A stretch of 64,000 nucleotides of DNA from Minisyncoccota bacterium (lineage in GTDB: Bacteria > Patescibacteriota > Minisyncoccia > Phycocordibacterales > SBAW01), in assembly GCA_035546615.1 (NCBI GenBank), contig DASZWM010000003.1, positions 64,001-128,000 on the forward strand, read 5' to 3'. Below the pieces are notes generated by a model that was not told the DNA's origin, did not search any database, and saw nothing but the letters and a program-made list of their open reading frames with translations. Made by a program: the position numbers and the translations under genes. Each line of letters starts with the position of its first letter. Position 1 is the first letter of the stretch. Of the stretch, positions 5,378-60,616 are shown one piece after another.

Positions 5378-7147
5378 TTACGCGCGGCGCTTTTCCTGCG
5401 GCTTCTTGCGCAGGCGGGTGCTGACCGGCGTTATTTCAAGATACTCGTCTTCGGCCATAACCTCAAGCCCGCGCTCGATGGTAAGGGTGTACGGCGGCAC
5501 CAGATTGATAGCCTCGTCGGAGCCGGAAGCGCGCATGTTGGTAAGCTGCTTGCCCTTGGTCGGGTTCACTTCCATCTCCTCGCCCTTGGAGGTATTGCCG
5601 ATGACCTGGCCCTCATACACTTCGGTCGCGGGGGAAATATAGAGCACGCCGCGGTCCTGGAGGTTCCAGAGGCTGAAGCCAAGCGCCTTGCCTGAGGCCA
5701 TGGACACCATGGAGCCCACGACGCGCTTTTGGATCTCGCCGGCGTACGGGCGGAATTCGATGAAGCGGCTCGAAAGGATGCCTTCGCCCTTGGTGTCGAG
5801 CACGAATTGCGAGCGGTAGCCCAGCAGGCCGCGGGTGGGGCCCTCAAATATCATGCGCACCGTCTCGCTGTGCTGGCGCATATCCTTGAGGATGCACTTG
5901 CGCTGGCCCAGGCGCTCGATGATGGGGCCCTGGAAGTCCACCGGCGTGTCGATGACGATTTCCTCAAACGGCTCGTAGCGGACGCCGTCGCGCTCTTCAA
6001 AAATAACGTGCGGCTGGGAGACCTGGATCTCGTAGCCCTCGCGGCGCATATTCTCCAGGAGAATCGCGATATGGAGCTCGCCGCGGCCGGAGACATGGAA
6101 GGTTTCGGAAGTGCCGAAGTCCACCTGGAGGCCGACGTTGACCTCAAGCTCGTGCTCGAGGCGCTCGCGGATCTGGCGCGAGGTAACGAACTTGCCTTCG
6201 CGGCCCGCGAACGGCGAATTGTTGACGAGGAAGTCCAGCGTAATGGTCGGCTCGTCGATGGCGATGGCCGGAAGCGGCGTGGCCCCGGCGTCGCTGGTAA
6301 CGGTCTCGCCGATGTAGATGTCCGGAAGGCCCGCTACAAGCACGATGTCGCCGGCCTCGGCGCTCGGTATCTCTATCTTCTGGAGGCCCTTGAACGAAAA
6401 GAGTTTCGTTACCTTGCCCTGGCGCATGGCGCCGTCGGGTTTCTTGATGAAAACGCTGTCGCCTACCGACACGGAGCCCTGGTAGATGCGGGCGAACGCG
6501 AGGCGGCCGAGGAAGTTGTCGTAGCCGAGGTTGAACGGCTGCATCATGAGCGCGCCGCCCTGCACCACATCGGCGTTGGCGGGCTTCACGTGCTCCAATA
6601 TTACGTCCAGAAGCGGCATGAGGTCCTTCGAGTCGTCGGCGAGCTTGCGCTTGGCGATACCCTGGCGGCCGATGGCGTACACTACGGGGAAATTGCTCTG
6701 GTCATCGTTTGCGCCGAGCTCGAGGAAGAGCTCCAATACCGCTTCCTCGCACTTGGCGGGATCGGCGGCCGGCTTGTCTATCTTGTTGATGACGACGATA
6801 GGCTTGAGGCCGAGCTCGAGCGACTTCTTGAGCACGAAGCGCGTCTGCGGCATCGGGCCCTCCTGGGCGTCCACGACAAGGAGCACCGAGTCGATGGAGC
6901 GCAGCACGCGCTCGACCTCGGAGCCGAAGTCGGCGTGGCCGGGGGTGTCCACGATGTTTATCTTGGTGCCCTTGTACGGCACCGAGGCGTTCTTTGCGTA
7001 AATAGTGATACCGCGCTCGCGCTCGAGGGTGTTGGAGTCCATAGACACGCCTTCCTCCCCCACGCCGGTCTGCTTAAGCAAAGCGTCGGTTAAGGTGGTC
7101 TTGCCGTGGTCCACGTGCGCGATGATAGCTATATTGCGGATTTCCAT
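5378..7147 (-). CDS. typA: translational GTPase TypA/BipA
   Basis: Motif AHVDHGKTTLTDALL. Full EF-G-like domain order with TypA-specific C-terminus. Start placed at MEIRNIAIIAHV (ATG at 7145-7147) rather than the longer upstream ORF. Confidence 0.9.
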   Translation of the reverse strand: MEIRNIAIIAHVDHGKTTLTDALLKQTGVGEEGVSMDSNTLERERGITIYAKNASVPYKGTKINIVDTPGHADFGSEVERVLRSIDSVLLVVDAQEGPMPQTRFVLKKSLELGLKPIVVINKIDKPAADPAKCEEAVLELFLELGANDDQSNFPVVYAIGRQGIAKRKLADDSKDLMPLLDVILEHVKPANADVVQGGALMMQPFNLGYDNFLGRLAFARIYQGSVSVGDSVFIKKPDGAMRQGKVTKLFSFKGLQKIEIPSAEAGDIVLVAGLPDIYIGETVTSDAGATPLPAIAIDEPTITLDFLVNNSPFAGREGKFVTSRQIRERLEHELEVNVGLQVDFGTSETFHVSGRGELHIAILLENMRREGYEIQVSQPHVIFEERDGVRYEPFEEIVIDTPVDFQGPIIERLGQRKCILKDMRQHSETVRMIFEGPTRGLLGYRSQFVLDTKGEGILSSRFIEFRPYAGEIQKRVVGSMVSMASGKALGFSLWNLQDRGVLYISPATEVYEGQVIGNTSKGEEMEVNPTKGKQLTNMRASGSDEAINLVPPYTLTIERGLEVMAEDEYLEITPVSTRLRKKPQEKRRA

Positions 7148-9385: not shown

Positions 9386-10099
9386 TTAAGCGTCATGATG
9401 TTTGGCGCGGCGGCGCGCGTGGGCTTTGGAGTCGGACACAATAAGCCCGTCGCGCAGGACGATGATGCGCTGCGCATGCTCGGCAACGTCGGGCTCGTGG
9501 GTGATGAGGATTATCGTGCGCCCCTGCTCCTCGTTGAGCTTCTGGAACGTGCCGAGCACGACTTCGCCGGTCTTGGTGTCGAGGTTGCCGGTCGGCTCGT
9601 CGGCCAAAATGAGCGACGGCTCGTTGACAAGCGCGCGGGCGATGGCGACGCGCTGTATCTGCCCGCCGGACAATTCATTGGAGCGGTGAAGAAAATGCGT
9701 TTCGGAAAGCCCCGCGTCCACCAATGACTTCTTCGCGCGCTTTTCGCGCGCCTCCTCGTCTACGCCGGCGTACACGAGCGGCAGCATCACGTTGCGCAGC
9801 ATGGTCGTGCGCGGAAGCAGGTTGAACGACTGGAACACGAAGCCCACTTTGCCTTTGCGGATATCGGCCAATTGCTCGTCGTCGAGCTTGGATACGTCTT
9901 TTTTGTCCAGCCGGTACGAGCCCGAAGTCGGCGTGTCGAGGCAGCCGAGAATATGCATGAGCGTCGACTTGCCCGATCCGGAGGGGCCCATGATTGCGAC
10001 GAACTCGCCGTCCTCTATCGTGAAGGACACTCCCTTGAGCGCCTGGAATGCGGTATCGCCCGAGCCGTACGTCTTCGTTATGTCTTTTATTTCGATCAT
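9386..10099 (-). CDS. ABC transporter ATP-binding protein (MacB/LolD-type)
   Basis: Walker A GPSGSGKST, ABC signature [15 protein letters not shown] and Walker [12 protein letters not shown]. Confidence 0.85.
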   Translation of the reverse strand: MIEIKDITKTYGSGDTAFQALKGVSFTIEDGEFVAIMGPSGSGKSTLMHILGCLDTPTSGSYRLDKKDVSKLDDEQLADIRKGKVGFVFQSFNLLPRTTMLRNVMLPLVYAGVDEEAREKRAKKSLVDAGLSETHFLHRSNELSGGQIQRVAIARALVNEPSLILADEPTGNLDTKTGEVVLGTFQKLNEEQGRTIILITHEPDVAEHAQRIIVLRDGLIVSDSKAHARRRAKHHDA

Positions 10100-12527: not shown

Positions 12528-13143
12528 AGCGCATGTTCATCTTCTCATAGGCGGCCCTGAGCGCCTCCTTCCCCCGCTTGATGCGGATGCCGACCGTTCC
12601 GGCCGGGATCTGGAGGATGTCGGCTATTTCCTTGTACTGCATGTCCTCAAGATAGTGGAGGATGAGCACTTCGCGGTATTTCGGCTGCAGTTCCCCGAGC
12701 CCGCGATCGATCATCCGCCGGAGCTCTTTTTGCTCGCGCTCCCCCGGCGCCGGGTCCTCGTACGCGGTGTGCGACACCAGGGTATCGAAATCGACCAGCG
12801 TGAGCGGATTGTACGAGTTGCGCTTGAGGGCGTTGACGAAGGCGTTGTGGGCGATGCGGTACACCCAGGGCGAGAACCGCTGCGATACGTCGAAGTCCCG
12901 AATGTTCTGGTACGCGCTTACGAATACGTCCTGTACGATATCCTCTATGTCCTCGCTTCGGGCGAGGAACTTCCTGCCGTAGCGCAGGAGCTTTTCCTCG
13001 TACCGTTCCATCAGCGCGCCGAACACCTCCTTGTCGCCTTTTTGCACGCGCGCGGCCAGCTCCTCGTCGGTGAGTTGTTCGCGCGCGGAATCCACCTGCC
13101 TATAGTACACCGCGGCACCCATATTTATTTCATAACTCAACAA
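12517..13143 (-). CDS. RNA polymerase sigma-70 factor, ECF subfamily
   Basis: Region 2 (DIVQDVFVSAYQNIRDFD) and region 4 HTH (YREVLILHYLEDMQYKEIADILQIPAGTVGIRIKRGKEALR). Confidence 0.8.
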   Translation of the reverse strand: MLSYEINMGAAVYYRQVDSAREQLTDEELAARVQKGDKEVFGALMERYEEKLLRYGRKFLARSEDIEDIVQDVFVSAYQNIRDFDVSQRFSPWVYRIAHNAFVNALKRNSYNPLTLVDFDTLVSHTAYEDPAPGEREQKELRRMIDRGLGELQPKYREVLILHYLEDMQYKEIADILQIPAGTVGIRIKRGKEALRAAYEKMNMRYGE

Positions 13144-13235
13144 GCCCCCAAAGGGGGCTTGGAGAAGCGGCCGTTTCCGGCCTCCGCGTAGTAGTACACC
13201 CGGGCCGTGGAGATTATTTCACCCGGAGGAAGGAC

Positions 13236-14687
13236 CTATTTCTCCAGGTCGAGCGTCTCGTCGATGCGTATCTGCAATACGAAATCCGGCACGTGGCTCA
13301 CGAGTATCATGGCGCCTTCAAACTGGCTCAATGCGTGGGCGATGACCGGCAAGTGGCGGAAGTTTATATGGTTGGTGGGCTCGTCGAGTATGAGGAGTCC
13401 GGGCTTAAGCAACGTGAGGCGCGCGAATGCCACGAGGCCTTTCTGGCCTTCGGACAGCGTGCCTATTTTGGCGTGCACGAGATCGCCGGTTATCAAGAAT
13501 GCGGCGGCGACCGAACGCAGCGTCTCCTCCACCTGCTTTTCCATCACCGCGGCGAGCTCCTGGTACACGGTCTTGTCGAAATCGAGGTTCGAGAAATCCT
13601 GGCGGTAGTAGCCCACGCGCACGCCGGGCGCAATAACCGAGCCTTCCGCGTTCCCCGACGCGATCGATTCCAAAAGCGTGCTCTTGCCGATGCCGTTAGG
13701 GCCCTTGAGGAGCAGGTGCTGGTTGCGGCGCAGCGTTATCTTTGCCGTGCGCTTCACGGCCTTGTGGTTCTTGATGGTCAGATACGACGTGATGTTGATG
13801 ATGTCGCCGACTATCCCCTGCTGCGCGGGTATCGTGAACGCGCGGATAGTCTTGTCTTCGCGGCGGACATCCACCTTCTCCTCCTCCAGTTCTTCGGCCT
13901 TTTCGCGCATGCGCTTTGCCACCATGCGCATCTGGCCGCCCTTGTTTGCGAAAAAGTTCGCCTTGTCCTTGTTCTCCTGTATTTCCTTCGCCAAAAGCGC
14001 GTTCTTCCGGTTCTCCTTCTCGATGCGCGCGGTTATCTGCTCGGTTACGTCGAAATAGTCGCCCACATACTGCTCGACATGCTTCGTATGCACGTCCAGG
14101 TACAAGACGCCGTCGGTGAACGAATTGAGGAACTCCGCATCGTGCGAAATGACGATGCAGGTCTTGTTGTAGGCGACGAGGAACTTCGTCAGATGCTCAA
14201 TGCCCGCCTTGTCGAGGTTGTTGGTCGGCTCGTCCAAAAGCAGCAGGTCCGGGTCCTGAATGAGCGCAGATGCAAGGAGGAGCCGCGCCTGCTGCCCGCC
14301 GGAGAACTTCTCTATTACTTTGTCGTGCGGGGCGGCGAGATTCACCACTTCAAGCACGGCGTCTATCTTGGGGTCGATATCGTAGACCTTCTCCGGGAAT
14401 ACTCTTTCAAAAAATTCGCGCACCGTGAGCTTCATCTGCTCGCGCGGAATGACCTGGCGCGCGATGGCGATAGTGAGCCCGTGCGCAATGGTGATGCGGC
14501 CCTTCTCCGGCTTGTGCGCGCCCGTGATGAGCCCGAATATGGTGCTTTTGCCCGCGCCGTTCTGCCCCATAATGGTCAGCTTGCCGCCGCGGCGCACCGA
14601 AAAATCCACTTCTTCCAAAATGGGCTTCTTGACGCCAAAATCAAATGACACCTTCTCGAATTTGAGAATAGCTTCGCCTCGGGACAT
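13236..14687 (-). CDS. ABC-F family ATPase (tandem nucleotide-binding domains, no TMD)
   Basis: Two Walker A sites (GQNGAGKST and GPNGIGKST), two signature/Walker B sets and a charged linker between the NBDs. Confidence 0.75.
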   Translation of the reverse strand: MSRGEAILKFEKVSFDFGVKKPILEEVDFSVRRGGKLTIMGQNGAGKSTIFGLITGAHKPEKGRITIAHGLTIAIARQVIPREQMKLTVREFFERVFPEKVYDIDPKIDAVLEVVNLAAPHDKVIEKFSGGQQARLLLASALIQDPDLLLLDEPTNNLDKAGIEHLTKFLVAYNKTCIVISHDAEFLNSFTDGVLYLDVHTKHVEQYVGDYFDVTEQITARIEKENRKNALLAKEIQENKDKANFFANKGGQMRMVAKRMREKAEELEEEKVDVRREDKTIRAFTIPAQQGIVGDIINITSYLTIKNHKAVKRTAKITLRRNQHLLLKGPNGIGKSTLLESIASGNAEGSVIAPGVRVGYYRQDFSNLDFDKTVYQELAAVMEKQVEETLRSVAAAFLITGDLVHAKIGTLSEGQKGLVAFARLTLLKPGLLILDEPTNHINFRHLPVIAHALSQFEGAMILVSHVPDFVLQIRIDETLDLEK

Positions 14688-18076: not shown

Positions 18077-18555
18077 GAGTTAAGCGTCCAGAGCATGAAG
18101 TTGAGATACGAGGCGAAGCTGACCCATACAAGATAGGGCGCCAGAAGCAGTGCAGCCGTGCCCGAAACTTTCGAGAACGACCATACGGTTGCGGCTATAG
18201 AAACCCAGAGGAGCGCGATCTCAGCGAGCGCGGCCCCCGGATTGTGCAGGCCGAAGAACACGAGCGACCATCCGACGTTGAGAAGAAGCTGGACAAAGAA
18301 CAGCTTGAGCGCCAGCGTCCGGCCCCGGCTTGCCGGCCTCTTCCATACCAAATACGCGGCAATGCCCATGAGCAGAAACAACGCTGTCCACACCGGCGCG
18401 AATATCCAGTTGGGCGGAGCGAGGTCGGGCCTGGCGAGCGTGGCATACCACCCGCCTACTGCCGGAGCGGTAAAAAGCGATCCCAGGAGGCCGGCCCCCT
18501 CCGCCAGCAGTATCCATGCCGCGAGCGGCGCGAGGTTTTTTCTGAAAGAGATCAT
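18073..18555 (-). CDS. tspO: TspO/MBR family tryptophan-rich sensory protein
   Basis: Five TM helices with the TspO Trp-rich signature (WYATLARPDLAPPNWIFAPVWTALFLLMG). Start chosen at MISFRKN; the longer upstream extension is Arg-rich and unlikely. Confidence 0.75.
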   Translation of the reverse strand: MISFRKNLAPLAAWILLAEGAGLLGSLFTAPAVGGWYATLARPDLAPPNWIFAPVWTALFLLMGIAAYLVWKRPASRGRTLALKLFFVQLLLNVGWSLVFFGLHNPGAALAEIALLWVSIAATVWSFSKVSGTAALLLAPYLVWVSFASYLNFMLWTLNS

Positions 18556-18974
18556 TTGAAGATGATAAGCAGCGTGCCCGCAATGGTAAGTACCAGCCCC
18601 AGACCGCTGCGCATAGTGAACGCCTCGCCGAGGAACGCGGCGGCAAGCAGAAGCACCAGCACGACGCTCAGCTTGTCGATGACCGCCACGGCGCCGGCCG
18701 GGCCCTGTTGCAGCGCGATGAAGTAGAGGAGCCATGATGCCGCGCCCGCGAGACCCGATAGCGCTATAAATATCCACGCCCTGCCGCCCAGCGACGCCAC
18801 GCTGAATCCGGCGAACTTGCCGAACGCGATTCCCCCCAGCGCGAGAATGGCGGCCATAATGATGCCGCGGATGACGGTCGCCTGCGTCGGATCAACCTGC
18901 TGCAGGCCTATCTTGCCGAATATGGAAACGAGCGCGGCCGCTGCCGCCGAACCAAGCGCGTATGCCACCCACAT
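18552..18974 (-). CDS. EamA/DMT-family small transporter (single EamA domain)
   Basis: 140 aa, 4 TM. ATGA overlap with tspO. Confidence 0.6.
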   Translation of the reverse strand: MWVAYALGSAAAAALVSIFGKIGLQQVDPTQATVIRGIIMAAILALGGIAFGKFAGFSVASLGGRAWIFIALSGLAGAASWLLYFIALQQGPAGAVAVIDKLSVVLVLLLAAAFLGEAFTMRSGLGLVLTIAGTLLIIFK

Positions 18975-19184
18975 GCAAAAAGTATAGCACCGAGTTTTGC
19001 ATTCGGGTTCCCTGCGAATAGTCCGGCTTCGTCACCCTGTTCCTCAGCTGCCAGACTTGAGATAGAACCGGTCGCGGGTACGGTGTCCAGATTTGCTGCG
19101 GGTGTAGGAATGTCACTTGTGTATTTTTTGTGGCTTAAAATATAGGGCTCGGTTTCTATTTTAGTTCGAATCTCAGGGGGGTCA

Positions 19185-19221
19185 AAGAAAAAGCCGCCCG
19201 ACGAACTGAGCCGTCGGGGGC
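19185..19221 (-). terminator. intrinsic terminator downstream of 19245-19724
   Basis: Stem CCCGACG/CGTCGGG followed on the minus strand by TTTTTCTTT. Confidence 0.45.
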
Positions 19222-19244
19222 TTTGTTCGCGGGCGGTCGCTGCT

Positions 19245-19724
19245 TCAGGGAACGAAGTCGACCTTCGCTTCCCTGAGGTCGGTGAAATATCGCTTTGCCT
19301 CGGCCTGAATCGCCGCAGCGAGCCAGTACGAAAACATCTCGTCGTAGAAGCCCTCGACGCCGGAACAGGCCACGACGATGCCATCAATGACCGCACTCCC
19401 GGAATTGACGGTATCGTCGTCGAGCAGATATTGCGGGGCCACCTTGGTCGTCGGGAGGCCCGTGCGAACCGAGATCTCTGCTTTCGACAGCGCGATCTTC
19501 TTGTATGGCCATTCGTACTTGGCCGGATCGCCGAACTCGTGCACGAGGTAACAGTTGTCCTCGAAGGATTTGCCCTCGGTCATCGGATTGATGATTTCGA
19601 CGGCATTTGCAACGACGACGAGATCTCTCCGCCTGGTGACGCCAGACCTCAGAGTCAACTCGATGCACGGACGCACGAACTCGAACGCGCGGGCTACCGT
19701 GTTGGCAGTCAGGATGCCTTGCAT
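19245..19724 (-). CDS. hypothetical protein, possibly GlcG/DUF336-like
   Basis: Motif NSGSAVIDGIVVACSGVEG resembles the GlcG/HbpS family core. Weak assignment. Confidence 0.35.
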   Translation of the reverse strand: MQGILTANTVARAFEFVRPCIELTLRSGVTRRRDLVVVANAVEIINPMTEGKSFEDNCYLVHEFGDPAKYEWPYKKIALSKAEISVRTGLPTTKVAPQYLLDDDTVNSGSAVIDGIVVACSGVEGFYDEMFSYWLAAAIQAEAKRYFTDLREAKVDFVP

Positions 19725-19756
19725 GTCAGTTACTCCTTCTGTCTATATTGTTGAAC

Positions 19757-20149
19757 TCAGCGGCAGAAAGCTTTGACGATTTCACCCGTCAGCTTCTGCC
19801 GGCAACCCATGACAAAGAGACGGTCACCTCTTTGGAAATCAGACGCAACCAGAGTGCCGGCCTTCGCGCCGCCTCCCATGTACAGGAGGGGCCCGTCCTG
19901 GTGCCCGCCCGCATACTGCGCAAAGAGGCACTCGTGATACTCCAAGGCCGACTCAGGCCTGCGAGCGGGGCCGCGAAAGACAACGATGGGAACCTGTGGA
20001 GACTCCCGATCAACACCGAATGCATCCAGGCTGATTGCAGTGAAGACCAGCGAGCCTCCCTTGTCGATCTGCTCGAGCCATCTGAACTGCAGTCTTTTTC
20101 GATCTCTTTCGACGGTCAGTACTTCCACGTTCAGACCTGCTAAACGCAT
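19757..20149 (-). CDS. hypothetical protein
   Basis: 130 aa with no recognisable domain. Cassette partner of 19245-19724 between tRNA-Gln fragment repeats. Confidence 0.35.
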   Translation of the reverse strand: MRLAGLNVEVLTVERDRKRLQFRWLEQIDKGGSLVFTAISLDAFGVDRESPQVPIVVFRGPARRPESALEYHECLFAQYAGGHQDGPLLYMGGGAKAGTLVASDFQRGDRLFVMGCRQKLTGEIVKAFCR

Positions 20150-20357
20150 GGCGTATCCTTTCGTGCTTAATCCGTCGCGTACTATGCCACAAATATCTAA
20201 TAAAAGGAAGTCACGATGTTTCTAGGATTCGAACCAATTTTGTGGCTCAAAATATAGAAACTAGTTTTTGACCCGTCTAGGTCATTTTTGAAACTTTTGG
20301 AAACGAGCCTTATGACACAACGATGTGCCTAGGTCTTTCGATACCGCGTCCATGACT

Positions 20358-20418
20358 GCTGCCAGACTTGGAACTTCGATACCCAAGATAAACGGATCCA
20401 GAGTCCCCTATTGTCGCT
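20358..20418 (-). pseudogene. partial degenerate copy of the tRNA-Gln 3' half
   Basis: GCTGCCAGACTTGGAACTTCGATACCCAAGATAAACGGATCCAGAGTCCCC aligns over about 50 nt with the genuine tRNA-Gln 3' half immediately upstream. Confidence 0.5.
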
Positions 20419-20430
20419 TTATGCGCAAAG

Positions 20431-20501
20431 CTGCCAGACTTGGATTCGAACCAAGATAAACGGATTCAGAGTCCGTTGTCCTACCATTAGACGATCTGGC
20501 A
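20431..20501 (-). tRNA. tRNA-Gln (anticodon CUG)
   Basis: Manual fold: acceptor UGCCAGA/UCUGGCA with U1-A72 and G73 (Gln identity), anticodon arm ACGGA-CUCUGAA-UCCGU, T-loop UUCGAAU. Confidence 0.85.
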
Positions 20502-20857
20502 GCTTTACTCACAAAGAACGACAATTTCCTAAAGGAACCGGATGCAAAGGCAAAGCAGTCTGCCTTTCATTCCCGCCACTAGAGGATCTGGCAATAGGTA
20601 TATGCCTGAGGCAAATACACACAAAAGATACCTGAAAACGCGCCAAATCTCAACCTATCTTCCGCTTCATCCTATCCTAAGGATGCCTTCAGTAAGCTTT
20701 AGGCATGATAGCCATACTGCTTATATTAGGCTTCAGCATATTCCTGCTCTTTCTCACGGGCATCATCAACATCGCTACCGACCCGATGAGCATCGACCAG
20801 GAGGAAGAAAGGAAGGAAAGGCATAAAGCCCGCTATGCCGCCTCGACGTACCAGTAG

Positions 20858-25015: not shown

Positions 25016-25091
25016 TGGAGCCGGAGGCCAGGATTGAACTGGCGACCCCGTCTTTACGAAAGACGTGCTCTACCAACTGAGCTACTCCGGC
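25016..25091 (-). tRNA. tRNA-Thr (anticodon CGU), CCA encoded
   Basis: Manual fold: GCCGGAG acceptor, D-arm GCUC-AGUUGGUA-GAGC, anticodon arm CGUCU-UUCGUAA-AGACG, T-loop UUCAAUC, 3' UCCA. Confidence 0.85.
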
Positions 25092-25113: not shown

Positions 25114-25575
25114 TCATATAAGCAAACGGGCGGCAATCGCTCTTTTACTTATTGCGCGCCCTTTTCTGCCGTTTCCTTTATTGAGATTAGCATAAGTAGG
25201 ACTTAATGCGTCACAGTTCGGACAAACTAGTCTAAGATTTTCTTCTGTATTATTCTGCCAATTACCATCGATATGGTCCGCAACTAACGGCACAAGTCCG
25301 GTAACCGGATTAACTTCCGACCAACCGCACATACAACACTTATCGCCAAACTTTTCTCGCAGATAACGCTTGACCGGCCTTGAGACTATCCCCGTTACCT
25401 TTAGTCCTGTTATCTTTCCCTCTTTCCACTTTTTGATATAAGATTCGTGCTGCAATTGTGCCTGGCACTTGTTACTGCAATAGGTGTATCCAGCGCGAGC
25501 AGTCTCTGTACCACACAGAACACACGCGCTACGTGGTTTTTTAGGCATCGACATACCTACAAGAAGTATATGCAA
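25114..25575 (-). CDS. HNH endonuclease (His-Me finger), free-standing
   Basis: Cys-rich zinc knuckles (CVLCG..CSNKC, CCMCGW..CPNCD) flanking the HNH core ADHIDGNWQNNTEENLRLVCPNCD. An alternative start at MPKKPRSA (25548) is possible. Confidence 0.7.
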   Translation of the reverse strand: MHILLVGMSMPKKPRSACVLCGTETARAGYTYCSNKCQAQLQHESYIKKWKEGKITGLKVTGIVSRPVKRYLREKFGDKCCMCGWSEVNPVTGLVPLVADHIDGNWQNNTEENLRLVCPNCDALSPTYANLNKGNGRKGRAISKRAIAARLLI

Positions 25576-27615: not shown

Positions 27616-27687
27616 CGCGGGGTGGAGCAGTAGTAGCTCGCAAGGCTCATAACCTTGAGGTCGCAGGTGCAAGTCCTGCCCCCGCAA
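27616..27687 (+). tRNA. initiator tRNA-fMet (anticodon CAU)
   Basis: Near-identical to E. coli tRNA-fMet at the ends: CGCGGGG...CCCCGCAA with the C1-A72 mismatch. Anticodon loop CUCAUAA. T-arm GCAGG-UGCAAGU-CCUGC. Confidence 0.85.
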
Positions 27688-27694
27688 CAAGCCA

Positions 27695-27737: not shown

Positions 27738-27934
27738 TGCGAGGGAAAGAAGCGAACTGCTTCGCTTCTGGCAGGACTTGCAGGCCGGAGCGCGACCTCA
27801 TTTTCTTAGAGGTATTCCTCTTAGAAAATGGAAGTACTCCTGTGGTGTTGTTTTGCACTTGCAAAACCGCGAGGCCGGGCTGCAGCCGAGCCGAGTGACG
27901 ACGAGGCGAGAGCGAAGGCCAAGCCTATTCTCCC

Positions 27935-28585
27935 CTACACAAAATCGAATTCCTCAAAAACCCGCCGATACAAATCGATAGTCGCGTTCGCTTCGCGCTG
28001 CGACAAATGGTAAGTCTCTCCCTGATGCGCGATGTCGTTGCGCACCTTGTGCGCCTTCCATGCCAAGTCGAGTGTCGAGAACTGGAGGGGGTTCGCATCG
28101 CGCAGCTTCTCCCCTATATCCTTGCCCCGATAGCCCTGGGTATTGAGCAGGTCGCCAAGCATGATATCGGCTTCGAGTATGGCACGACGCCAATCGCTCT
28201 CGCTGCCCGAGCTTGACCACTCCCGGATCTTCTCCCAATGCGGGTTCTTGTGCGGATCTTCCGGATGCTCGACCTTGTGTTCGTGCGCTTCCTTCCCGTG
28301 GAACCCTTCGTGCTCGACCGTTACAAGCCGGATGCGGACCCACACCGCCAGCGCAAAGAGGAATACGGTCGCAACCATGCCGATGACGGCGATAAGCCCG
28401 AGGGAGAAAGAGAATCCTGACGCCACATGCGACGCAGTGGCGGCCTGGTCTGCCGGCGTCGCGGAGCCGTCCAAAGGAAAGCCGAAGAACGCAAAGACGG
28501 CATTTACGATATCGAACCCGCGCAAAAGGATGTACTCAATGTTAAGGAAATGGACGTTCTCCATCCGGTTATTGTACCTCGCCAA
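27935..28585 (-). CDS. membrane-anchored protein with C-terminal HEPN-like (DUF4145-type) domain
   Basis: Two N-terminal TM helices, a His-rich linker, and a C-terminal domain containing the Rx4H motif KVRNDIAH characteristic of HEPN/DUF4145 RNase-fold domains. Confidence 0.45.
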   Translation of the reverse strand: MARYNNRMENVHFLNIEYILLRGFDIVNAVFAFFGFPLDGSATPADQAATASHVASGFSFSLGLIAVIGMVATVFLFALAVWVRIRLVTVEHEGFHGKEAHEHKVEHPEDPHKNPHWEKIREWSSSGSESDWRRAILEADIMLGDLLNTQGYRGKDIGEKLRDANPLQFSTLDLAWKAHKVRNDIAHQGETYHLSQREANATIDLYRRVFEEFDFV

Positions 28586-59947: not shown

Positions 59948-60321
59948 GGGAGTGACAGGCTTAGACAATATAAATAATAGTTCGCACGCAAGGGAGAAGC
60001 GGGGACCTTCTTTAAAAAGCCCCAAACCATAACTGCAAAATCAGTTACATCGCCGTATTTCACGGTGAATGACCTCGCTTTCGCTACCGCAAGGAGCTAA
60101 GCGAGCATTGGCTCTGCAACGCTCGTGAGCGGAGTACCAATGTTATAACACCGAGATCGATCGGCTAGCCTGCTTGCCTAGCCCTTCTAAACTAAAGCTG
60201 CGATCCGGTCTTATTTCGTCTGCTTCTTACAACCGGGTCTAAGAAACAAAAGCAGCCTATCTCTTGTAGACCTGCGCTCTATCTTATGTTGCACGGCGGT
60301 TCAACTCCGCCCACTTCCACC
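59948..60321 (+). ncRNA. ssrA: tmRNA (SsrA), standard one-piece
   Basis: Immediately downstream of smpB. 5' GGGAGUG pairs with 3' CACUUCC, including the G3-U70 Ala identity pair. T-arm GGCGG-UUCAACU-CCGCC with a T-loop identical to E. coli tmRNA. Discriminator A then CC. PK1-like GCGGGGACC..AAAAAGCCCC. Candidate tag frame GCA(60035)..UAA(60098-60100). Confidence 0.7.
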
Positions 60322-60333
60322 GGTAAAAACATT

Positions 60334-60360: not shown

Positions 60361-60616
60361 CGGTGGAAGTGAGTACTGTGCCTGAGCACAGTACGAGGCG
60401 GAGTTGAAAGGCGCAGCGATGCCCTGCACTGGCAGGGCCGCGAGCCGGGGTCGCGAAAACTTTTTGCGACGGCAAAAAGTTATTTGTGACCAACCCTTCC
60501 CCACTTCGGCCCACACATACCAAAAGCTGTCCTCGATGGGCAGCTTTTGGTGTTCTTTACCGCACACTTTTGTCTTAGTAATATGGCATTAGGCTGAACA
60601 AAAGGGAGTGCGTGCG

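Follow-up and report, generated by a model that had tools for sequence, protein, structure and literature searches.

The DNA considered here is a 64,000-nucleotide (nt) stretch of a Minisyncoccota genome (contig DASZWM010000003.1, positions 64,001 to 128,000; called the window below), in which a gene for tRNA-Gln(CUG) lies after pyrG among partial copies of itself. These copies, the two small open reading frames (ORFs) found between them, and a set of structured modules that trail tRNA genes in the window and in its relatives are the subject of this analysis. The host is a small-genome groundwater or soil bacterium of the candidate phyla radiation (CPR), and the window has a G+C content of about 58%. 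The nearest pyrG genes are those of Adlerbacteria-like Patescibacteria, and the protein encoded by one of the two small ORFs, ORF159, is identical to one from a metagenome-assembled genome of 'Candidatus Paceibacterota'. The relatives used for comparison are fetched related loci and contigs, labelled L plus a number; the closest ones have a pyrG that is 86-89% identical. The gene order in the window is pyrG, tRNA-Gln, ORF130, ORF159, EamA, TspO, a 170-residue ORF, DUF6496 and LapA, followed by Ham1, an Ogt-like gene (Pfam DNA_binding_1) and SpoU.

Fragments of the tRNA were sought by local alignment of the tRNA sequence against the whole window on both strands, and matches with a score of at least 26 were reported. 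Only four were found, here named Psi1 to Psi4 (Table 1). All lie less than 1.5 kb from tRNA-Gln and on its strand, with no further match of this score on either strand elsewhere in the 64 kb. The original prediction, that tRNA-Gln is embedded among its own fragments, is thereby confirmed, although its details need some adjustment. Its 3'-half copy at 20358-20418 is present but ends near 20406-20410. The 13-nt T-arm fragment at 20226-20238 and the copy of the 3' terminus at 19046-19059 are both real, each being misplaced by 1 nt, and a 20-nt motif does occur twice, at positions that differ by 3 and 11 nt from those given. Psi1, which lies upstream of the functional gene in an ancestral upstream context, was missing from its list. 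The two small ORFs and the terminator that it placed between the fragments were found as described. The functional tRNA-Gln is matched at 100% identity in L091, L024, L093 and most metagenome loci. Psi2 has 4 extra nt in the T-loop and is recovered by nhmmer with E = 1.4e-4; for fragments shorter than 25 nt, the nhmmer profile of tRNA-Gln was not sensitive enough. Rfam, run on the region and on L091, returned only tRNAs and later a transfer-messenger RNA (tmRNA), with no family that fits the fragments or the modules, and Tandem Repeats Finder gave nothing relevant in the region.

Table 1 Features of the window discussed in the text. Positions are those of the 64,000-nt stretch; pLDDT is the predicted local distance difference test score of the structural model.
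Feature	Position	Strand	Remarks
EamA transporter gene	18552-18974	-	first gene of the block syntenic with L091, hence distal boundary of the variable interval; Pfam
R-like flank	19000-19046	-	truncated start of Gln-type trailing module
Psi4	19047-19069	-	tRNA 50-72, displaced ancestral 3' end; score 29
Motif A	19126-19145	-	copy of 20-nt direct repeat
Intrinsic terminator	19187-19218	-	after ORF159; alternatively 19197-19218
ORF159	19245-19724	-	cargo gene; DUF336/GlcG/HbpS/EfgA-like (PduO-C) fold, model pLDDT 94.6
ORF130	19757-20149	-	cargo gene; small all-beta protein, model pLDDT 89.7
Psi3	20222-20237	-	T-arm fragment, tRNA 48-63, 15/16 identical, score 27; abuts motif A'
Motif A'	20238-20257	-	other copy of 20-nt repeat; overlaps promoter-like -10 upstream of ORF130
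Psi2	20358-20406	-	tRNA 28-72 (weakly from ~22); 45 matches in 49 columns, score 68
Inner-cassette trailer	20407-20429	-	23 nt; right arm of leader/trailer inverted repeat
Functional tRNA-Gln(CUG)	20430-20501	-	ARAGORN; Rfam RF00005, 66.2 bits; CCA not encoded
Inner-cassette leader	20502-20569	-	68 nt, with hairpin; left inverted-repeat arm 20502-20522
Psi1	20570-20593	-	5' fragment, tRNA 1-24, 20/24 identical; local match 1-18 at 20576-20593, score 26
Ancestral tRNA-Gln promoter-like site	20625-20653	-	TTGAGA-17-TATCTT; promoter scan
Module	27770-27938	+	model R1, 40.6 bits; after tRNA-Met 27616-27688
tmRNA gene	59948-60322	+	Rfam RF00023, 93.9 bits; missed by ARAGORN
Module	60396-60510	+	model R1, 76.5 bits; after tmRNA and terminator

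The two outermost fragments lie in DNA that flanks an intact tRNA-Gln in relatives. Psi1, together with the 64 nt upstream of it, aligns at about 80% to a promoter-like block, leader and tRNA 5' end in L091 and L133, where this block, including the promoter-like site of Table 1, stands directly upstream of the functional tRNA-Gln; in the window, the promoter and tRNA 1-24 together occupy 20570-20655. In L092, the match of Psi1 and its upstream DNA is to a 5' fragment that precedes the tRNA by 305 nt. On the other side, the tRNA 3' end and R flank of L091 and L109 can be aligned with Psi4 and the next ~45 nt downstream, and nucleotide homology with L091 resumes at 18992, which is 18 nt before the EamA start codon. 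Since the flanks of Psi1 and Psi4 both match relatives, about 1.5 kb (19070-20569), including the working tRNA, separates the two ends of one gene that was formerly in its native context. The retention by Psi4 of the native flank seen after the intact tRNA in L091 agrees with the earlier view of the fragments as insertion scars, and the layout needs more than one event, so that the idea of successive insertions also holds.

The functional tRNA is moreover nested in a split older copy of itself. Psi1 is tRNA-like only to position 24; beyond this, 705 of 2000 shuffled sequences (35%) score as well, and the possibility that Psi1 is a full-length decayed tRNA was ruled out on the strength of this chance-level similarity. 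Psi1 (1-24) and Psi2 (~22/28-72) have sharp, complementary boundaries, between which lie the leader, the intact tRNA and the trailer. Leader and trailer form inverted repeats that extend the acceptor stem. The predicted RNA fold of 20350-20600 is likewise nested: Psi1 and the Psi2 3' strand pair, and the leader/trailer helix carries the inner tRNA. Its energy is -102 kcal/mol, compared with -71.5 for shuffles (z = -6.3), a stability that is partly expected because the fragments are copies of a self-complementary tRNA. Psi2 had been taken for a tandem copy marking the footprint of an attachment (att) site; it is better explained as half of an older tRNA-Gln that was split in the D-arm, the other half being Psi1. 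The outer halves do not make a canonical tRNA: Psi1 has 4 mismatches in 24 nt, within the D-arm, and Psi2 has the enlarged T-loop.

The same nesting is seen in L055, a distant relative, where the outer pieces correspond to tRNA positions 1-18 and 20-72. Here the outer and inner sequences represent different alleles: the outer acceptor strands pair with each other (T7:A66) and not with those of the inner tRNA (A7:T66). Because of this difference between the alleles, one insertion of a cassette with a complete tRNA is a far simpler explanation than a pair of independent att events. The nested fold is also predicted for L055 (z = -5.2). Two other interpretations of the nested layout were set aside. 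A functional split or intron-containing tRNA does not fit, ARAGORN and Rfam calling the inner gene only; and a tandem duplication followed by decay does not agree with the sharp boundaries, with the differing inner and outer flanks, or with the differing alleles of L055. Of the features of a miniature inverted-repeat transposable element, leader/trailer inverted repeats are seen in both the window and L055; there is no clear target duplication, and the 43 related tRNA-Gln flanks that were compared hold no second copy of the leader or trailer.

Partial copies with other layouts occur in further relatives. In L053 (15956-16131) and L085 (12385-12546), a 53-nt spacer, homologous between the two, separates tRNA-Gln from an exact downstream copy of tRNA 18-68/72, with no nested fold. 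The tRNAs of these two lineages differ, which implies either concerted evolution or selection on the 5'-truncated copy. In L058 (12462-12648) and in L077 (upstream of tRNA-Met 6627-6701), two tandem units precede an intact gene, each consisting of a promoter-like AT-rich stretch and the first 18-27 nt of the tRNA.

The DNA between Psi4 and Psi3 contains the two cargo genes, bracketed by the 20-mer CTATATTTTRAGCCACAAAA (motifs A and A'). This 20-mer has exactly 2 copies in the window even when 3 mismatches are allowed, where shuffles predict 0.01, and was not found in the other fetched loci or in viral contigs. The cargo genes have their own promoter-like site, overlapping motif A', and their own terminator. 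ORF130 belongs to a rare family, with 10 representative relatives, and a fold search of the PDB gave no match. For ORF159, Foldseek gave a probability of ~1.0 and TM scores of 0.56-0.65, at E values of only 5e-3 to 2e-2 (2a2l, 9jth, 6bws, 4nkp, 3fpv). It has 15 homologues in varied contexts, the nearest showing 80% nucleotide identity that is confined to the gene. Neither ORF has a match in Pfam or PADLOC, and neither fold is that of a recombinase. Homologues of ORF130 and of ORF159 are found singly, in unrelated surroundings and not near tRNAs. Because they stand alone and share no context, the two are independent accessory genes, and are neither a conserved operon nor mobility genes. The description of the pair as a two-gene cassette is therefore not upheld in the sense of a conserved unit.

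In most of 80 related genomes tRNA-Gln follows pyrG, at a distance that ranges from 50 nt to 9 kb and in variable orientation. It is on the opposite strand to pyrG in L011, L012, L018, L020, L027, L029, L030 and L033; the locus has therefore been repeatedly inverted, besides being an insertion site. The block prfB-ftsE-ftsX-pyrG is conserved, and the DNA past the tRNA is not. The pyrG 3' end and tRNA-Gln(CUG) mark where a conserved block of genes ends in Paceibacteria (Adlerbacteria-like CPR). Apparent synteny of window ORFs 9386-10099 and 13236-14687 in 65 loci was discarded, as these were paralogous ABC-ATPase matches to ftsE. The closest relative, L091 (pyrG 89% identical, tRNA identical), has the order pyrG, Exo_endo_phos, tRNA-Gln, ORF239, ORF792, EamA, TspO, DUF6496 and LapA onward, while L092, L093, L133 and L134 have other genes again after the tRNA. 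Thus the content of the interval differs among the window and these five relatives and the order outside it is kept, with prfB-ftsE-ftsX-pyrG to one side and EamA-TspO-DUF6496-LapA-Ham1-Ogt-like-SpoU to the other. A comparison of synteny had been proposed as a check on the two cargo genes; both are absent from the pyrG-EamA or pyrG-flanking interval of all five. Given that its genes differ in every relative, the pyrG-EamA interval is a cargo site.

L091 offers a further example. At 12659-13715 it has a 992-bp insertion bracketed by a 65-nt direct repeat (88% identical) that starts in the tRNA-Gln 3' end. Within it lies an AT-rich ORF of 239 residues, for which neither Pfam nor PADLOC gave a match. 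L099 has a 590-nt insertion at the same point, and the two insertions support tRNA-Gln as a hot spot. The P0030 contig has an ORF of equal length (239 residues) at the corresponding place, the likeness being one of length and position alone.

We propose, with a probability of roughly 60%, that the layout was left as scars by two or more insertions that differ in kind, at a recurrent insertion site formed by the pyrG 3' end and tRNA-Gln. The ancestral order would have been pyrG, promoter, tRNA-Gln, a short structured trailer (the R module) and EamA. In one event (event A), DNA would have inserted at the tRNA 3' end, bringing with it a replacement 3' end, so that the original last 23 nt and their native flank were moved 1.36 kb away and now form Psi4 beside EamA. 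The DNA presumed to have arrived in this way now holds ORF130 and ORF159, and the 20-bp repeat and Psi3 that bracket the cargo may reflect a further event. In another (event B), a cassette of ~160 nt, comprising leader, intact tRNA-Gln and trailer, would have entered the D-arm of the resident tRNA and split the old gene into Psi1, which stayed behind the ancestral promoter, and Psi2. The tRNA of the cassette would then have taken over the function, probably still being transcribed from the ancestral promoter through Psi1. The order of the events and the present immobility of the locus are inferred. The enzyme may have been a site-specific recombinase acting in trans, or the process may have been homology-assisted illegitimate recombination with DNA of a relative.

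Several results weigh against this proposal. No integrase, transposase or other recombinase gene was found within ~12 kb, the lack of an integrase having been noted in the original prediction as well, and a Pfam scan of the ORFs at window positions 8-35 kb gave no recombinase domain. No attP-like lone copy of the 3' half and no circular junction were found: the 39 metagenome loci with the 45-nt 3' half were all full tRNA genes or were cut by contig ends, and viral contigs gave 0 matches to the 26-mer, the 21-mer or motif A. The inserted DNA has the same G+C as the genome. No exact empty site was found, the best relative having only 89% pyrG identity. Among the 43 related tRNA-Gln loci compared, none has a homologue of the inner leader or trailer, and it is hence only the two nested cases that point to a mobile inner cassette. 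Finally, the Met, Asp and Thr tRNA genes of related genomes have fragments of themselves nearby as well, and some fragments may belong to a functional element instead of being scars.

A more uniform explanation is that all fragments are att copies left by successive tyrosine-integrase insertions at one tRNA 3' end, the interiors having been deleted, and that the two genes are what remains of a decayed islet or a cis-mobilisable element. Psi4, Psi3 and Psi2 do end at or near the tRNA 3' end in direct orientation, a direct repeat of the tRNA 3' segment (Psi4, 1.36 kb downstream on the same strand) bounds the inserted DNA, and the cargo varies between relatives. The fragments start in the T-arm or in the anticodon/D region, as do the att sublocations within tRNA genes reportedly described by Williams in 2002. 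The 3'-end att model is nevertheless doubtful, because it predicts no 5' fragments: it does not yield an upstream 5' fragment with the ancestral promoter, nor the placing of an intact gene between complementary halves that the window and L055 show. The gap between the tRNA and Psi2 is only 23 nt, and alignment of the Psi1 flank indicates that the 5' half and upstream flank of the functional tRNA are not ancestral. Partial tRNA genes are a known product of integrated elements (PMC9897764), but with neither an integrase in the region nor an attP in the 39 metagenome loci or the viral contigs we regard this explanation as unlikely. The original prediction is thus right in its core idea, that of repeated insertion at a tRNA, and its attribution to an integrase is unproven.

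Less likely again is an origin in local replication errors only (fork stalling, template switching or slippage), with decayed tandem duplications, no mobile DNA, and genes that arrived independently. Direct and inverted partial copies beside many tRNA genes in these genomes speak in its favour, as do the tandem units of promoter and 5' fragment in L058 and L077 and the exact copy of 18-72 lying 53 nt downstream in L053 and L085. Duplication does not account for the inner tRNA flanks, which differ from the ancestral flanks of the outer fragments, for boundaries that are sharp and ungraded, for the outer allele of L055, or for the 1.3 kb of genes missing from relatives that separates the fragments. 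A slightly smaller probability is given to the fragments being functional RNA parts under selection, in which case the long precursor (Psi1, leader, tRNA, trailer and Psi2) and the copies of the 3' end would have a part in processing or regulation, or would mimic a tRNA. Both in the window and in L055, the stability of the nested fold far exceeds that of shuffled sequences, exact copies of 51-55 nt with a homologous spacer exist in two diverged lineages, and the tRNA-trailing modules show many compensatory changes. Set against these points, Psi1, Psi2 and Psi4 carry mutations and indels at positions conserved in tRNAs, the closest relatives L091 and L133 have no nested layout, and the stability largely follows from copying a self-complementary molecule. 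The suspicion that a metagenome bin chimera was joined at the repeated tRNA arises from the frequency with which contigs break there (L001, L099-L101); with both outer flanks syntenic with L091, and with an independent assembly of identical sequence, we consider an artefact very improbable. That assembly is the Logan contig L001, identical to the window over 18097-20459, which means that the arrangement of EamA, cassette and tRNA is not peculiar to a single assembly.

Assemblies often break in or beside tRNA-Gln. L001 ends inside it (window position 20459), L099-L101 start at tRNA positions 18-20, and L113 and L095 end 2 and 29 nt past the tRNA. Such breaks fit with repeats or strain-level heterogeneity at this place, and the starts at positions 18-20 point to a recurrent boundary in the D-loop.

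Two small ORFs in the neighbourhood should also be mentioned. A hydrophobic ORF of 50 residues (20705-20857, plus strand) lies between pyrG and the ancestral tRNA promoter and has a weak Ninjurin match only; its place is taken by Exo_endo_phos in L091, L092 and L093 and is empty in L133. An ORF at 25114-25575 (minus strand), beside tRNA-Thr (25016-25091), has a sub-threshold match to the endonuclease family HNH_3 (19.4 bits, with a cutoff of 24.8). It has 5 relatives by tblastn, and lies just upstream of prfB in the three with listed coordinates (L021, L034, L042).

Same-strand own fragments within 400 nt were also counted for other tRNA genes, and are present at 16 of 79 Gln(CUG) loci, 9 of 25 Asp, 10 of 41 Met, 3 of 29 Thr(GGU) and 4 of 42 Thr(CGU). 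Many of them belong to a recurrent module of ~110-170 nt, often following a terminator, in which a structured core is preceded by an antisense copy of the 3' strand of the acceptor and T-arm and followed by a sense copy of the final 15-22 nt. Such modules are seen downstream of tRNA-Met, Asp, Thr, Leu and Gln (L011-L093, L094-L135), and in every case the arms match the gene next to them. Of the 19 pairs predicted in the core of the Met/Asp/Thr/Leu type, 15 show compensatory changes; the core of the Gln type is distinct and has a covarying hairpin of its own. A covariance model of the Met/Asp/Thr/Leu type (R1) has 31 matches in 1.49 Mb: for 22 of them there is a tRNA on the same strand 24-83 nt upstream, and two represent the second copy of a tandem pair. 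A strict pattern for the core motif missed the modules of the window itself, and the covariance model found them. The one after tRNA-Met has a nested hairpin insert of ~48 nt (GCGACCTCATTTTCTTAGAGG...GGAAGTACTC), which is also found inside modules of L099 and L117. The other follows the tmRNA gene, the 3' end of which is copied in the arms of the module, once in antisense and once in a degenerate sense form.

The Gln-type module is intact in L091, L094, L109, L128, L099 and L019, and window positions 19000-19069 are its truncated start. In L091 it is bounded by exact 15-nt repeats, and the flank that follows it is the flank found directly after the tRNA in L093, L095 and L077. This match between the flank past the module and tRNA flanks that have no module means that the Gln module was itself inserted. 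No family in Rfam 15 matches the modules, and a text search of the literature found no description of them. Readings as hammerhead, box C/D or TnpB-guide RNAs were dropped by eye, since the defining motifs or partner genes are lacking.

We tentatively suggest, as the less probable outcome, that tRNA and tmRNA genes of Paceibacteria may host two kinds of small protein-less elements, nested tRNA cassettes and trailing modules. The first may be an inverted-repeat cassette of ~160-190 nt that carries a whole tRNA-Gln, enters the D-arm and replaces the function of the resident gene, as in the window and L055; it would be a gene-disrupting element that carries its own complement. The second has direct repeats as its boundaries and occurs in some relatives but not in others. 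It may serve a tiny mobile element as an attachment site in the form of a folded hairpin, act as a guide-like RNA, or imitate the top half of a tRNA.

In ordinary bacteria, tRNA genes are textbook hot spots of insertion. To our knowledge such hot spots have hardly been described in CPR/Patescibacteria, whose tiny genomes rarely have recognisable islands or integrases. The locus resembles integrative islets and cis-mobilisable elements of tRNA genes in that a direct copy of the tRNA 3' end delimits an insert beside the gene, the native flank has stayed with the displaced copy, the cargo varies, and accretion appears tandem and layered. It differs in having no integrase in cis, no attP that could be found, a G+C that is not deviant, a cargo of two unrelated single genes, and one event that hit the D-arm and left a 5' fragment; among ~100 related loci no related autonomous element was seen at tRNA-Gln, the cargo being heterogeneous and without a Pfam match to an integrase. 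In Nanoarchaeum and others, tRNA genes are split into 5' and 3' pieces that can pair by way of the acceptor stem and one additional helix. Like those archaeal split or intron-containing tRNAs, the present pieces lie apart with an intervening sequence and are able to pair; unlike them, the outer pieces are mutated and look dead, and the intervening sequence holds a complete working tRNA. We know of no splicing system in this bacterium. In Thermococcaceae, partial tRNA genes near canonical ones have been attributed to integration of genetic elements (PMC9897764). The likeness lies in non-canonical partial copies near canonical genes; those cases are archaeal, with recognisable integrated elements or CRISPR activity, whereas the present one is in a CPR bacterium and has no element body. 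The trailing modules, which combine a conserved structure with a sense and an antisense target-like copy, can be compared, by analogy only, with recombination sites that fold into hairpins (integron attC, the attP of CTX phage) and with guide RNAs that have two segments matching the target (the IS110 bridge RNA, the tigRNA of TIGR systems; PMC12045711). The modules differ from these in having arms of 15-22 nt and no associated recombinase, Tas or IS110 gene.

The unusual layer of the locus is the tRNA nested in a split copy of itself, and both the nested cassette and the module family could be new. The results suggest that gene gain in this CPR lineage still passes through a tRNA gene, and that a resident tRNA can be broken and then replaced by an incoming copy. 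The locus also led to a family of structured elements, linked to tRNA and tmRNA genes, that is absent from Rfam. If the modules are mobile or guide-like, they would provide a new handle on DNA exchange in these organisms, and on ways in which tRNA 3' ends could be targeted without an enzyme encoded by the element.

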